Source of the DNA: a virus
Lineage: Duplodnaviria; Heunggongvirae; Uroviricota; Caudoviricetes
Length of the DNA stretch: 34,989 nucleotides
IMG/VR virus record: IMGVR_UViG_2778261298_000001
Strand: one strand, 5' to 3'
Shown here: positions 1-10,052 of the stretch, piece after piece
Numbering within the stretch: position 1 is the first letter of the stretch
How the letters are laid out: each line of letters begins with the position of its first letter
Notes under the pieces: model-generated
What the model was told of the DNA's origin: nothing
What the model saw: the letters and a program-made list of their open reading frames with translations, nothing else
The model's database searches: none
Program-made: the position numbers and the translations under genes

Positions 1-1053
1 TTACGGGGTAATGCCAACCGCTGTCGCCACTTTGTCGCCACTTGGCAGCGTTGCCAGAGGATTGAAACGGAGCGCCGTTTCCAGATGATCCGGTGCCAGA
101 TGTGCGTAACGCATAGTCATTTTTATATCGTGGTGTCCGAGAATTTTTTGTAAGGCCAGAATGTTTCCACCCGACATCATGAAGTGCGCCGCAAACGTAT
201 GGCGCAGAACGTGTGTGAGTTGACCGCGAGGGAGCACGATAGACGTTTTTTCCATCACGGATAAAAATTGAAAATAGCAGTCTGTGAAGAAATTGAACCC
301 ATCAAGCGCCATGATCTCTTCGTAAAGCTCTTTACTGATAGGGATGCTTCTGTTTTTCTTCCCCTTCGTTCTTACAAAGGTAATTCGGTATTTGGTCACC
401 TGTGAACGAGTAAGATTTACGGCTTCTCGCCAGCGTGCGCCTGTGCTTAAGCATATCTTAACTACCAGTGCCAGAATTGGGTCCTGACGTTTGCAATCAG
501 CCAGTAATTCAACAATCTGCTCATGGGTAAGCCATGCCATCTCTTTTTCTGCGATGGTGAATTTTCGCATGTTCTCCAGTGGGTTCGGATACGACCATTC
601 GCCCAGGCGGGATAGTTCGCTAAAAACACTACTTAGATAGCTTTGCTCCAGGTTAATGGTGACCGGGCTTGCTCCTTTCTTCCATTTCTCGCTGAAGTAG
701 ATCTCACCTGTCAGGCGTTTATCTCGATAGTGGGCAAACATTTTAGAGGTTAGATCAGTTGCAAGGGGATTGCCCAGAGCGTCAACCATCAGCAGCAATT
801 TGTCATAGACATGCTGCCCAGCAGTCAGTGATTTACCATGTAGTTTGAACCATAGCTCAACCACGTCTTTCAGTGTTCGACGATCCACTGATTCACCTAG
901 CCAGGGCTTTGCTTCGGTTTCTTCCATCGTGTGACGCTCAAAAGCCAGTGCTTCGCCTTTGGTGGCGAATTGTTTACGCACACGACGCCCACTACGTCCG
1001 GCGGGGTAACATTCGCAAAGCCATTTTCCTGTGGTGAGTTTTCGTACAGCCAT
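1..1053 (-). CDS. int: Tyrosine integrase (P2/186 Int family)
   Basis: C-terminal ...HVLRHTFAAHFMMSGGNILALQKILGHHDIKMTMRYAHL is the tyrosine recombinase catalytic region. The N-terminus MAVRKLTTGKWLCECYPAGRSGRR resembles P2/186 Int. Start chosen at the internal ATG (1051..1053) preceded by GGAGGG, not the track's 1131. Confidence 0.9.
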   Translation of the reverse strand: MAVRKLTTGKWLCECYPAGRSGRRVRKQFATKGEALAFERHTMEETEAKPWLGESVDRRTLKDVVELWFKLHGKSLTAGQHVYDKLLLMVDALGNPLATDLTSKMFAHYRDKRLTGEIYFSEKWKKGASPVTINLEQSYLSSVFSELSRLGEWSYPNPLENMRKFTIAEKEMAWLTHEQIVELLADCKRQDPILALVVKICLSTGARWREAVNLTRSQVTKYRITFVRTKGKKNRSIPISKELYEEIMALDGFNFFTDCYFQFLSVMEKTSIVLPRGQLTHVLRHTFAAHFMMSGGNILALQKILGHHDIKMTMRYAHLAPDHLETALRFNPLATLPSGDKVATAVGITP

Positions 1054-1241
1054 AAAAAATGCCCTCCAATAGAGAGCATTTTTACTGTATGTATAACCAG
1101 TGTCAATGTATGAAATCCTGCGACCATACATCTCACTGAAGCCATAATGAAGTAGGCTATTCTTTTTGCTATGTGATCATGTAACTTTTGCGGTTAACCT
1201 GTGGCTCATTTTTATTTTAGGCGCAGATATAAAAGCAAAAG

Positions 1242-1433
1242 TTATCGTGAGTTTTTAGTACAGATTTTTTTGGATTTACTAATAGTTCCATCATTGCAAA
1301 CGAATTTGCCATCAGAGGTACAGTGAGAAACACCTCCCTTTTTCCCTGAGCAGGGATAATTTCTAGCATAGGTAGCTAGTGGGTTTAATAACAAAGAACA
1401 TGACAAAACCACAAAAAATACCTTACCAAGCAT
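1242..1433 (-). CDS. Small cysteine-containing protein with an N-terminal signal peptide, between the repressor and int
   Basis: 63 aa; hydrophobic N-terminus [23 protein letters not shown] followed by a Cys-rich polar region. Strong GGGAGGA RBS 5 nt upstream of the ATG. AT-rich. Confidence 0.55.
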
Positions 1434-1448
1434 AATTTCCTCCCGGTA

Positions 1449-2024
1449 CTATTTAACATACTTGACTGTTAAACTTATAATTTTACCAATTATTTCAATG
1501 TCTTCTATCTTACATTCGAAGGCTCTGTTTCCACCCTCGACGAAGATTCTTCCACCGGGTAAACGAGTAATGTCACGGATCGTTATTTCGCCATCAATAC
1601 TTATTACCCATTTACCATCACGTATATCATCAAATTCCTTATCACAAATAAATTCAGAATTATTATCTGTGATTACAAAAAGATTCTTGAATGCCGACGG
1701 TAGAAATTCTCTATCGAAAATATAAAAACCGTCTTCACACAAGGCCCCATCAGATAATACATATTTAGCAACTTCCATAGTATTTGTATTACCTGAAGTT
1801 TGCTTTGAACCATGCCCGGTTGTGAGCCAATTAAGCGAGGTGCCTGTTTCAAGGGCGCACTGGATTACCCATTCTGCTGGGAATGAGTCACGCATGTAGC
1901 GTGTGGCGAGTGTACTTTTAGAGATTCCTAAATGATCGCACAACGCCTGTCGAGTCTTGAATCCATAAGCTTCTACCATGCGCTCTATGGCGCCTCGTCC
2001 GCCTTTCTCCAAATTCATGGTCAC
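1449..2024 (-). CDS. cI: CI-type immunity repressor (186 CI-like)
   Basis: 191 aa, leftward, upstream of int in the same operon as in 186. N-terminal helix-turn-helix-like segment (GFKTRQALCDHLGISKSTLATRY). GGAG RBS before the ATG. Confidence 0.75.
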   Translation of the reverse strand: MTMNLEKGGRGAIERMVEAYGFKTRQALCDHLGISKSTLATRYMRDSFPAEWVIQCALETGTSLNWLTTGHGSKQTSGNTNTMEVAKYVLSDGALCEDGFYIFDREFLPSAFKNLFVITDNNSEFICDKEFDDIRDGKWVISIDGEITIRDITRLPGGRIFVEGGNRAFECKIEDIEIIGKIISLTVKYVK

Positions 2025-2143: not shown

Positions 2144-2365
2144 ATGAGACCTAACATTTCAATCACTCTTACCACGCCTCATGTGACTATTGAACGCTAT
2201 AGCGAGCTGACAGGGCTATCCATCGATACCATCAATGACATGTTGGCTGATGGACGCCTTATCCGTCACCGTCTGCGCAAAGATAAAAAACGCGAAAAAG
2301 TGATGATCAACATAGCAGCAATGACCGTTGATGCGCTTTCAGAATGCAATCTAAACCTTAATTAG
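2144..2365 (+). CDS. apl: Apl/Cox-like small DNA-binding protein (excisionase / repressor of pL)
   Basis: 73 aa, first gene transcribed rightward from the switch region, with a GAGGA RBS. Called by position as in 186. Confidence 0.6.
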
Positions 2366-2397
2366 TTCGATTCTGAAATACATCAGAGGCATTGACC

Positions 2398-2907
2398 ATG
2401 TTTGATTACCAAGTTTCCAAACATCCACATTTTGATGAAGCCTGTCGTGCATTTGCACTGCGCCACAATCTGGTGCAACTGGCAGAACGTGCAGGCATGA
2501 ATGTGCAGATTCTGCGGAACAAGCTGAACCCAGCTCAGCCTCATTTATTAACCGCACCAGAAATCTGGCTGCTTACCGATCTGACTGAAGATTCAACGCT
2601 GGTAGATGGTTTTCTGGCACAGATTCATTGTCTGCCATGTGTACCGATTAATGAGGTGGCAAAAGAGAAACTGCCACATTACGTCATGAGTGCAACCGCA
2701 GAGATCGGGCGTGTTGCTGCAGGTGCGGTGTCTGGCGATGTAAAAACCTGTGCCGGTCGTCGTGATGCTATCAGCAGCATTAACTCTGTAACACGACTGA
2801 TGGCGCTGGCGGCTGTTTCATTGCAGGCCCGTTTACAGGCTAATCCTGCGATGGCGAGTGCAGTTGATACCGTGACTGGCCTCGGTGCTTCATTTGGTTT
2901 GCTGTGA
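2398..2907 (+). CDS. cII: CII-like lysogeny establishment protein
   Basis: N-terminus [20 protein letters not shown]... matches my recollection of 186 CII. Start moved to the ATG at 2398 (track used TTG 2392); AGAGG RBS. Confidence 0.75.
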
Positions 2908-8021: not shown

Positions 8022-8111
8022 CGCGCGTTGCAAACCATGTCGATGCTGTTATCATTTGCAGCAAGTTTTCAAAGTGCTAAAGCATTCTTTAATTCCAAGG
8101 TAGGTATAGAT

Positions 8112-10052
8112 ATGATAGCCGGGTTGTTTATCCGTAACGTCAAAACATATCAAGGCATAAATTATATTCCTTTGACAGATGCTCCAAATTTTAGCGGTTT
8201 TTTAGGAAATAATGGGATAGGGAAAAGCTCAATACTTGAGGCATTGGATGTAATATTTAATGCTAAAGAGTGGAATTATAATACAGCTGTCAAAAAGAGC
8301 GGCATAGAAAAAACCAGCCCACATATTGTACCGGTTTTTATATTGGAGGAGGATTTTTTTGATTCTGAGACACTCCCTTTTGCAAAAACGCTAGATGCTT
8401 TAGCTAGGGAGGTTAGCTTAGAGGACGCTACAAACTCACAAACAAAAACTATTCTTGAAAATTTTATAAGTCATCGTGATAGACTTTTTGCACGAAATGA
8501 TATGCAAGGGCAGTTAATTATTCCTATTGGACGCCTTCATAATAATAATATGTCATTATCTGTTTTAGCAGGTAGAAGTCTATCTACTATAATGGAAAAA
8601 GATATATTTGGTGCCGGATTCAAGTTAAGTGAAGGTATAGAGTTAGCTAAACATTTTCAAGTTTTATTTGATTATATCACTGGTAAGTTAGAATATTTAT
8701 ATATACCAAAAGAGATTGATACTGAGGTTTTTACTAAGCTTGAGAGTATTGGAACTCAAGTATTGATGGGTGAATCGCTGCATGAAATTCTTGATAGAAT
8801 AGTTGGTGAGTCAAAAATTGGAGAAATCAACAGAGAACTAAGCGGATTTCTTGAAGATATCTCAACGAAGCTAGTTAACTATACGTATAGAACGCCTTCG
8901 GATAGGCAAAAAAGAATTCAAAAAAAAGAAGTCTATAACTTAATTATACAAGCGTTTTTTAACGTCAGAAAATTACATAAAACCCACAATGGCGAGCATT
9001 TTTTAGAAATTAGTAATTTGAGTTCGGGGGAAAAGCAGAAGGCTATTATTGATGTTGCGCATGCATTGCTGACAAAGCATAGAAGTAATAGTGATAATTT
9101 AATCATAGCCATAGATGAACCTGAGTCTTCATTGCACATGTCTGCTTGTTTTGAACAATTTCAAGCGTTATCAGAACTAAGTTTAGGATGTAGGCAACTA
9201 TTGTTTTCCTCTCATTGGTATGGTTTTCTCCCCACCTTGGAAAAGGGAACTGTTACAATAATAACTAAAAAAAATAATGAGCATCTTTTTGATCTGATCA
9301 ATTTAGCATCTTACCGGGAAGAAATAAAACAACTTGTTCGAGATAGTAGGGGAAAGTTACCATTTGATATTAGAATTAAAAGTATGAATGATTTTACTCA
9401 GTCATTATTATCTAGTGCAACAGGTGAGAAACCATATAATTGGTTGATTTGTGAGGGTTCATCGGAAAGAATTTATCTTTCAGCATATTTTAAGGATTTG
9501 ATAAAGAATCATAATCTTCGTATTGTACCTGTTGGGGGGGCGTCGGAAATTAAAAAAATATATAACTATCTCTCTGCCTGCTATAAGGATGTCGAAGGGG
9601 AGATTACCGGAAATATATATTTGTTAGCTGATACTGATAGCCAGTTGGTCAGATATGACGTCGGAACATATCAAAGATTACATTGTAAAAGATTTGTTTA
9701 TGATTCGTCTAAAAACAGGGCAATCTTAGTTAAGATAGACTCAAATCCGGTATCGCCTGCAACTGAGATAGAGGATGTTTTGAACGCAAAAATCTATTAC
9801 CAGACCTTATTGTCATTTGCTGGTGATTACGATTATTTAAGTTTCATTAATAATATTGATGCTCCAAGTGATAATCTGGAATCTTACTCAGCTCTTGATC
9901 TCAGAGTTAGTGAAAAAAATGCCATAAATAGATTTTTTGATGATGGAAATAATAAGTTTTTATTCGCAAAAAGATATGTTGAATTAATGACGGAAGAAAA
10001 TAGTGTTCCAGAGTGGATTAGTAAGATTAGAGAGGTAATGACTTCAGCTTAG
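8112..10052 (+). CDS. ABC-type ATPase fused to a TOPRIM-like nuclease domain (OLD/Gabija/PARIS-like); candidate anti-phage defence cargo
   Basis: Walker A GNNGIGKSS (about 8205..8231), ABC signature LSSGEKQ (about 9013..9039), Walker B/D-loop LIIAIDEPESSLH (9099..9125) and H-loop-like LLFSSHW. Then a TOPRIM-like LICEGSSE (about 9441..9467), PVGGASE and LLADTDS (about 9621..9641). Start set at the ATG at 8112 (MIAGLFIRNVK, typical ABC N-terminal strand). Markedly AT-rich compared with flanking phage genes. Confidence 0.75.
   Translation: MIAGLFIRNVKTYQGINYIPLTDAPNFSGFLGNNGIGKSSILEALDVIFNAKEWNYNTAVKKSGIEKTSPHIVPVFILEEDFFDSETLPFAKTLDALAREVSLEDATNSQTKTILENFISHRDRLFARNDMQGQLIIPIGRLHNNNMSLSVLAGRSLSTIMEKDIFGAGFKLSEGIELAKHFQVLFDYITGKLEYLYIPKEIDTEVFTKLESIGTQVLMGESLHEILDRIVGESKIGEINRELSGFLEDISTKLVNYTYRTPSDRQKRIQKKEVYNLIIQAFFNVRKLHKTHNGEHFLEISNLSSGEKQKAIIDVAHALLTKHRSNSDNLIIAIDEPESSLHMSACFEQFQALSELSLGCRQLLFSSHWYGFLPTLEKGTVTIITKKNNEHLFDLINLASYREEIKQLVRDSRGKLPFDIRIKSMNDFTQSLLSSATGEKPYNWLICEGSSERIYLSAYFKDLIKNHNLRIVPVGGASEIKKIYNYLSACYKDVEGEITGNIYLLADTDSQLVRYDVGTYQRLHCKRFVYDSSKNRAILVKIDSNPVSPATEIEDVLNAKIYYQTLLSFAGDYDYLSFINNIDAPSDNLESYSALDLRVSEKNAINRFFDDGNNKFLFAKRYVELMTEENSVPEWISKIREVMTSA

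Follow-up and report, generated by a model that had tools for sequence, protein, structure and literature searches.

The short open reading frame (ORF) between the repressor and integrase genes of a 186-like prophage is almost certainly a functional YdcA-family gene, one that encodes a Sec signal peptide followed by a core of ~35 residues and that is carried as cargo in a variable cI-int junction. The family itself is known but uncharacterised, and the junction is a known minor cargo/defence slot. The window analysed here, that is, the whole stretch of 34,989 nucleotides, is a 186/P2-like prophage of E. coli, shown with the integrase end first; that end adjoins the host gene rcdA in RefSeq genomes, and the ORFs up to about 32.2 kb fit the layout of a P2/186-like prophage. 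Our best overall explanation, in which the product is held in the periplasm of the lysogen and keeps foreign DNA from crossing the envelope, is put forward tentatively, and we give it somewhat less than even confidence once the mechanism is counted in. The features discussed below are collected in Table 1.

Table 1. Features of the lysogeny region and of other parts of the window, in window positions.
Feature	Positions	Strand	Details	Basis
P2/186-type integrase gene (int)	1-1053	-	Int_N and Phage_integrase domains	domains; RefSeq context
Terminator-/attenuator-like hairpin	1055-1083	-	A5-stem-U6; abuts the int ATG and pairs int GGAGGG; int module	
Promoter-like site	1078-1106	-	TTGACA-17-AAAAAT; just upstream of the int hairpin	
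Variable cargo slot	1114-1448	-	here the YdcA-family gene and its 3' spacer	alternative occupants in siblings
Long imperfect hairpin	1177-1250	-	lies over the ORF stop; arms 1182-1196 and 1230-1244	
YdcA-family gene	1242-1433	-	63 codons and stop; ATG start; stop at 1242-1244	ORF list
Mature peptide, residues 24-63	1245-1364	-	40 aa, 4 Cys, pI 9.7	predicted
Signal peptide, residues 1-23	1365-1433	-		predicted
Shine-Dalgarno sequence	1439-1443	-	GGAGG; 5 nt before the ATG, 5 nt after the cI stop	read from sequence
186-type CI repressor gene (cI)	1449-2018/2024	-	RefSeq 'phage repressor protein CI'	Phage_CI_repr 2.8e-33; Phage_CI_C 2.7e-27
Sigma-70-like site	1453-1481	+	TTAACA-17-TATAAT (11/12); overlaps the last cI codons, antisense to cI	
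apl/cox-like gene	2144-2365	+		
cII	2392-2907	+		
674-aa AAA_15/AAA_21 ATPase gene	8028-10052	+	OLD-like TOPRIM domain; between replication gene A and the portal gene	

The initial annotation had described a 63-aa ORF with a strong ribosome-binding site, inserted between the repressor and int genes on their strand and lying in an AT-rich patch. Most of this description stands unchanged. The ORF list gives the frame on the minus strand at the same coordinates, the Shine-Dalgarno sequence is of consensus type and well placed, cI, the ORF and int all read in the same direction, and the gene is indeed an insertion relative to phage 186, where the slot is empty and cI and int abut. Read on the minus strand, the sequence leading into the ORF is TAG (the cI stop, 1449-1451)-TACC-GGGAGG-AAATT-ATG, with a gap of 15 nt between the cI stop and the ORF start, and int lies downstream beyond a gap of 188 nt. 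The AT-rich patch is also real, but it is wider than the ORF: beside the ORF itself (35.9% GC; GC3 29.7%) it takes in the spacer (36.2%) and the C-terminal half of cI (33.3%), as against 48.3% for int and 51.5% for the whole prophage. Within cI the C-terminal half (1449-1733, minus strand), at ~33% GC, differs from the N-terminal half, at 47%. Since the C-terminal half of cI is as AT-rich as the ORF, the low-GC block may be a unit of cI-CTD plus ydcA and not the ORF alone. An ATG-initiated ORF of at least 63 aa occurred in 85 of 2000 shuffles of positions 1114-1448 (~4%); length alone is therefore weak evidence, and the case for a gene must rest on homology and on the pattern of substitution.

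Homology places the protein firmly in the YdcA family. It scores 114.6 bits against the NCBIfam model NF007463, above the curated cutoff of 93, and 68.5 bits against NF007462, the chromosomal YdcA subgroup, below that model's cutoff of 118; PHROG 6000 is matched at E 3.1e-34. The identical protein is found on at least 1000 contigs, its database entry (P0001) bears PF27300, and recent RefSeq annotation names the ORF product "YdcA family protein". A Pfam scan of the ORF, made with a Pfam set that apparently did not contain PF27300, gave only a sub-threshold chance match, and an Rfam scan of 950-2200 gave only a chance miRNA match far under threshold. The alignments share the core motif PCSGKKGG[VI]SHC...F[VI]CxDG[ST]xSxSK..C, every invariant column of which is present in the window protein, and the protein has the architecture of the family, a signal peptide and then the core motif with its four cysteines. 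A literature search by accession and family name found no functional study.

The substitution pattern is that of a coding sequence. Codon alignments were made with alleles from Yersinia, Buttiauxella, HP2, K-12 ydcA and several beta- and gamma-proteobacteria; dN over the mature core lies at 0.07-0.25, and dS has reached saturation in every comparison except that with the near-identical Escherichia allele (L006). Comparison with the Yersinia alsatica allele over 34 mature codons shows 24 nucleotide differences and only 4 amino acid differences. The codons of the signal peptide diverge almost freely (dN 0.7-2), with hydrophobicity kept. Judged from these alignments, the mature core is under strong purifying selection. 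A non-coding spacer conserved only as nucleotides had been named at the outset as the finding that would tell against a gene, and the opposite was found, with amino acids conserved and synonymous sites saturated. Among 5426 complete E. coli genomes, 648 (~12%) have the gene, and all 40 sampled records of these 648 genomes carry it as an annotated CDS, none of them labelled a pseudogene. E. coli B, BL21 and REL606 are among its carriers, with int-ydcA-cI beside rcdA. The defective P2-like prophage of this laboratory lineage, as seen in E. coli B strain C3029 (L087; NZ_CP014269.1 1684918-1691130), retains int, cI, apl and a YdcA-family gene of 93% nucleotide identity, and has cII and gene A in truncated, fused form.

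The N-terminus of the protein contains K4, an uninterrupted 12-residue hydrophobic stretch (Kyte-Doolittle 9-mer means 1.9-2.7), P18 and T-Y-A at positions -3 to -1, and Sec-type cleavage is predicted between TYA and RN, after residue 23. Although the signal sequences of homologues have little else in common, nearly all of them have Ala at -1. Together these features uphold the signal peptide predicted in the initial annotation, and its description of the product as cysteine-rich was equally sound: there are five cysteines, of which the four in the mature part are conserved, being invariant in a curated 23-sequence alignment (in a wider 48-sequence set three are invariant and C28 is nearly so). 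The predicted mature peptide has a mass of 4.29 kDa, nine Lys/Arg residues versus two Asp and a net charge of +7, and it contains two invariant basic clusters, GKKGG and SKSKK. A check for a lipobox had also been proposed, and none was found. With [LVI][ASTVI][GAS]C and a Cys roughly 15-35 residues from the N-terminus as the criterion, the sole candidate, V-L-S-C12, was rejected: position 12 is too near the N-terminus and lies within the hydrophobic core, the Leu at -2 is unusual, and Cys12 lacks conservation, homologues having no Cys there or a Cys in a non-permissive context. An AlphaFold2 model based on the 48-sequence alignment (mean pLDDT 79.5; 85-92 over residues 31-60) shows the signal helix and then a small fold containing a beta-hairpin. 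The same domain occurs behind signal peptides in multidomain secreted proteins.

The position of the gene also suggests when it would be expressed. Beyond cII the prophage continues with fil, genes for DUF5347 and DUF2732 proteins, a TraR/DksA-like gene, dam and replication gene A. The pL lysogenic operon of phage 186 is annotated cI-int-orf69, and since that operon covers both cI and int, co-transcription of the ORF with cI is to be expected. A consensus scan of the minus strand found no promoter-like and no terminator-like site in the cI-ORF interval; with no terminator-like element between the two genes, expression from the CI maintenance transcript is the natural expectation. The spacer of 188 nt that separates the ORF from int is strongly folded (MFE -60.1 kcal/mol, z = -5.7 versus shuffles). 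The long hairpin over the ORF stop is not a canonical terminator, as no U-tract follows it, and the first terminator-like hairpin 3' of the ORF is the one that abuts int. Homology with Klebsiella P2-like phages and with ORF-less E. coli prophages ends at about 1111-1113. By this comparison the int hairpin and the promoter-like site just upstream of it belong to an int module common to the Klebsiella phages. The hairpin sequesters the Shine-Dalgarno site of int and may, as an attenuator, hold down int expression in lysogens. The sigma-70-like site at the cI-ORF junction, antisense to the end of cI, may be due to chance in AT-rich DNA, because the overall count of such sites does not exceed that in shuffles.

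What occupies the cI-int junction differs from one sibling prophage to the next. The int allele of the window is found in 1120 E. coli genomes, 593 of which continue through the YdcA gene, and the partial matches listed break at about 1111-1113. Siblings with other slot cargo sit at the same rcdA attachment site. In E. coli 2021CK-00607 and Klebsiella phage KP12 the slot encodes a 558-aa protein that matches PD-Lambda-1 (E 7e-120) and bears a SNIPE-associated annotation; strain E23 has YdcA together with a KAP-family NTPase there, and CFT073 and WCHEC020032 have unrelated predicted proteins of 314-323 aa. The occupants in siblings include validated or likely defence genes (PD-Lambda-1/SNIPE and the KAP NTPase). 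The nuclease SNIPE is bound to the membrane and cleaves the DNA of phages as it is injected (PMC13190303), and P2-like phages are reported to have a minor defence hotspot that lies between integrase and primase (PMC13586616). A variable slot and a deviant base composition, two marks of moron or lysogenic-conversion cargo, are both found here (ORF GC 35.9% vs 51.5%). A moron in the classical sense also has a promoter and a terminator of its own; upstream of the ORF the minus strand shows no promoter-like site, and the hairpin at its 3' end has no U-tract. PD-Lambda-1/SNIPE resembles the YdcA-family gene in its place in the cI-int slot, on the repressor strand and in sibling prophages at the rcdA site, but the products are quite different: the one is a 558-aa membrane-bound nuclease and the other a predicted 40-aa periplasmic peptide that has no catalytic motif, and there is no sequence similarity between them. 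A search of the protein against PADLOC-DB 2.0 gave zero families at E <= 0.01. Small envelope proteins by which resident phages exclude superinfecting ones include T5 Llp, phi80/N15 Cor, T4 Sp and Imm, and TP-J34 Ltp, of which Llp, Cor and Ltp are lipoproteins. The initial annotation, which suggested lysogenic conversion or superinfection exclusion, had proteins of this type in mind, and its suggestion is reasonable as a hypothesis. Like these, the window protein is small, comes from a resident phage and is predicted to be exported; unlike Llp, Cor and Ltp it has no lipobox, and it has no PADLOC match. The prophage has a further candidate in the 674-aa ATPase, whose best PADLOC matches are AriA, AbiLi and Old and whose location is the classical P2 defence hotspot; it is probably the main defence cargo of the prophage.

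Placement behind a repressor recurs across the family. A pattern scan of one genome per species gave 228 loci, 80 of which were examined. Judged from similarity to window proteins, P2-like prophages harbour at least 17 of the 80, and the commonest neighbours overall are a CI repressor directly upstream and a P2-type integrase downstream (Escherichia, Buttiauxella and three Yersinia species). Six loci (L005, L006, L007, L009, L010 and L026) are downstream of a 186-type cI, directly so in five, and a P2-type int then follows in five (not in L007); in L016 int is upstream instead. The genera with cI/int-linked loci are Escherichia, Buttiauxella, Yersinia (three species) and Atlantibacter. The CI of the Yersinia loci is only ~34% identical to that of the window, and their YdcA mature core differs at only 4-5 of 34 positions. 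In about nine loci gpD/ogr is no more than a few kb away (Iodobacter, Comamonas, Oceanisphaera, Acinetobacter, Kingella and others), and one P2-like prophage locus lies among tail genes. Beside the YdcA-like genes we found no conserved partner gene beyond cI, cox/apl and int; a Pfam scan of the immediate neighbours at the 63 non-P2 loci gave a heterogeneous set (cytochrome b561, HTH repressors, S24 peptidase, SSB, RdgC, tail tube). Among deposited phage genomes, tblastn found relatives in 20 Moraxella catarrhalis phages, three Acinetobacter phages, one Pseudomonas phage and the Haemophilus phages HP2 and S2. In Mcat17, the one M. catarrhalis phage examined, the family member is in the late region; in HP2 an unannotated 60-aa homologue has its ATG overlapping the cI stop (TAATG) and is followed by orf1(S) and int. 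In IMG/VR a relative is present on at least 534 viral contigs.

The family is not confined to phages; its members include chromosomal E. coli ydcA, plasmid genes and, probably, a type IV secretion system (T4SS) component. E. coli K-12 YdcA (b1419) shares with the window protein a signal peptide, a basic four-Cys core of ~35 aa and the motif, and the alignment of K-12-type YdcA spans only window residues 10-59, with 57% identity. The window gene belongs to the NF007463 subgroup and is prophage-borne and cI-linked, whereas the chromosomal subgroup is NF007462 and chromosomal K-12-type ydcA adjoins cybB (cytochrome b561). Acinetobacter MOBQ plasmids of ~4 kb have the gene order traD-ydcA-orf243; pApiMCR53a (L092, 3916 bp) and pGFJ6 (L093, 4066 bp) contain in a row traD, a 58-aa YdcA-like gene and a gene for a 243-aa predicted membrane protein. 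The UniRef label of the window protein, 'conjugal transfer protein', may stem from such a plasmid context beside transfer genes. An exhaustive HMMER search of 1.84 billion proteins at E <= 1e-3 yielded 331 representatives at the 50% identity level, and tandem two-copy and three-copy forms of the domain exist. Six of the 24 scanned members of at least 140 aa bear a C-terminal nuclease domain (Endonuclease_NS in three, SNase in two and PLDc_2, which is PLD/Nuc-like, in one). These are three unrelated nuclease superfamilies, and no other domain recurs in the 24. One protein of 1152 aa with 14 partial matches (P0091) was left out as repetitive and artefact-like.

A search of PDB sequences with the family profile gave one significant match, Legionella pneumophila Dis2/Lpg0823 (7MUC chain AN), in which both lobes align (E 1.6e-4; 0.029 with the mature core alone). 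The Dis2 chain is also the first Foldseek match of the AlphaFold2 model (probability 0.99, 39% identity over 38 columns, E 0.076), and the next match has a probability of 0.12. A Dis2-like Legionella protein bears PF27300, hhalign gives E 1e-4, and each Dis2 lobe aligns with the YdcA core over GG[VI]..C...G..VCN[ND]G..S. YdcA and Dis2 are likely homologous. PDB matches to Pin-II/trypsin inhibitors and LDL-receptor modules (E 0.2-5) were treated as noise from cysteine-rich composition. Dis2 is a periplasmic, disulfide-rich, outer-membrane-proximal subunit of the Dot/Icm T4SS cap (PDB 7MUC/7MUD), where residues 40-115 are resolved. It has two lobes, five disulfides and no KK cluster, whereas the window protein has one lobe and four mature cysteines; and unlike the context of Dis2, the lysogeny region and the prophage ORFs to ~32.2 kb contain no T4SS genes that we could find. 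Dis2 is dispensable, and its contacts are with the lipoproteins DotC, DotD and DotK, not with DNA or with the central channel (PMC12716638). Published accounts treat it as Legionellales-specific, without structural neighbours or obvious homologues (PMC8486379, PMC12716638), so that a connection with YdcA seems to be unreported there.

We propose that the gene is transcribed and translated together with cI from the lysogenic promoter and that its product undergoes export, loses the signal peptide by a cut after TYA23 and forms two disulfides, steps that we consider very probable. Given export, cleavage and oxidation, the lysogen would constitutively hold a 4.3-kDa mini-protein of charge +7 in its periplasm. 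There the compact domain would bind polyanions rich in phosphate at the envelope, either DNA or a DNA conduit at the outer-membrane face, and the prophage copy would interfere with foreign DNA that crosses the envelope, be it from a superinfecting phage or possibly conjugative or transforming DNA. That the protein is such a binder, and by blocking the entry of foreign DNA an exclusion-type lysogenic conversion factor, is possible, though we hold this part of the proposal with considerable doubt. The GKKGG and SKSKK clusters and the charge are consistent with a small phosphate- or polyanion-binding module, as are the nuclease fusions, the links to a T4SS and to mobilization plasmids, and the neighbouring cargo that attacks injected DNA. 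A more general reading seems to us distinctly unlikely: the YdcA domain (PF27300) would be an extracytoplasmic DNA-binding or DNA-conduit module deployed by mobile elements, in prophages an exclusion factor of a new class that catches foreign DNA in the periplasm, and possibly a block to transformation. It would be the periplasmic counterpart of cytoplasmic DNA-binding folds, put to use in the nuclease fusions, in duplicate in Dis2, on the traD plasmids and behind cI, and a transformation block in Haemophilus, Moraxella, Acinetobacter and Neisseria would spare the prophage from recombinational deletion.

The main rival to a role in DNA entry is a role in fitness, in which the protein would bind LPS or phospholipid phosphates or outer-membrane lipoproteins and aid tolerance of acid, organic acids or envelope stress, with no direct anti-phage role. 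We judge this unlikely, and it draws on the chromosomal gene: E. coli W that lacks ydcA becomes sensitive to 3-hydroxypropionate, and induction of the gene at pH 5 under YdcI is reported, although the 3-hydroxypropionate phenotype is overridden by deletion of yieP and its mechanism is not understood (PMC7642389). This phenotype points to envelope or stress physiology over defence, and the place of Dis2 beside the outer membrane, bound to its three lipoproteins, agrees with it, as does the presence of the family in non-phage chromosomal contexts. A fitness role leaves unexplained both the repeated fusion to secreted nucleases and the placement in an anti-phage cargo slot. The fusions could equally be explained if the domain anchors its passengers to the envelope and does not bind DNA.

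The Dis2 match also raises the prospect, which we think improbable, that the protein would be an adaptor or accessory subunit of an outer-membrane machine such as a secretin, a T4SS or a lipoprotein complex, and that in a prophage it would aid lysis and release or be neutral. Dis2 heads both the sequence-profile and the Foldseek matches, a Dis2-like protein bears PF27300, and the gene stands beside traD on small mobilizable plasmids; set against this are the single lobe compared with the two lobes and five disulfides of Dis2, the absence of any T4SS gene from the lysogeny region and the prophage genes examined, and the expected expression with the repressor, which argues against a role in the lytic cycle. 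Very improbable, finally, is hitch-hiking or decaying cargo that has no meaningful expression, or a small toxin or lipoprotein retained in the membrane. The frequency of equally long ORFs in shuffles allows for decaying cargo, the hydrophobic N-terminus and basic C-terminus look superficially like those of type I toxins, and some database entries label homologues 'lipoprotein'. Against these readings stand the strong purifying selection and the annotated CDS in every record sampled, the conservation of the cleavage-site Ala and not of Cys12, the occurrence of the domain behind signal peptides in secreted proteins, and the resolved Dis2 residues in the periplasmic cap.

As the gene stands behind the prophage repressor in ~12% of complete E. 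coli genomes, its product would be made in a large share of lysogens, and the recurrence of so small a family on phages, on plasmids, in secreted nucleases and probably in a T4SS suggests that its members share an activity related to the envelope or to DNA. Should the prophage copies exclude DNA, a 40-residue peptide would constitute a minimal periplasmic defence, and exclusion would offer a first way into the function of chromosomal ydcA and of Legionella Dis2; otherwise the gene is one more conserved hypothetical in a known cargo slot.

Several members of the family show additional features. In the nuclease fusions (for example L050 1732-2655, P0145, P0208, P0210 and P0218) the YdcA-like domain is N-terminal and the protein is secreted. 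Orf1(S) of HP2 (L002 3636-4400), which comes after the YdcA-like ORF, is an exported tRNA_anti-like (OB-fold) protein, and a weak homologue of it follows the YdcA-like gene in Moraxella caviae (L036 6221-6667); the YdcA-like gene and the OB-fold gene may form an occasional two-gene cassette. Members from beta-proteobacteria and Rhizobium (P0056-P0062, L037, L043, L051, L053, L059 and similar ones) have a second Cys-rich module at the C-terminus, CxC...C[TA]GPRGGxYC...SGxKSY, which in one sequence matches the PBCV basic adaptor domain (PF08789), and Providencia members have long Lys-rich repeat tails in its place.
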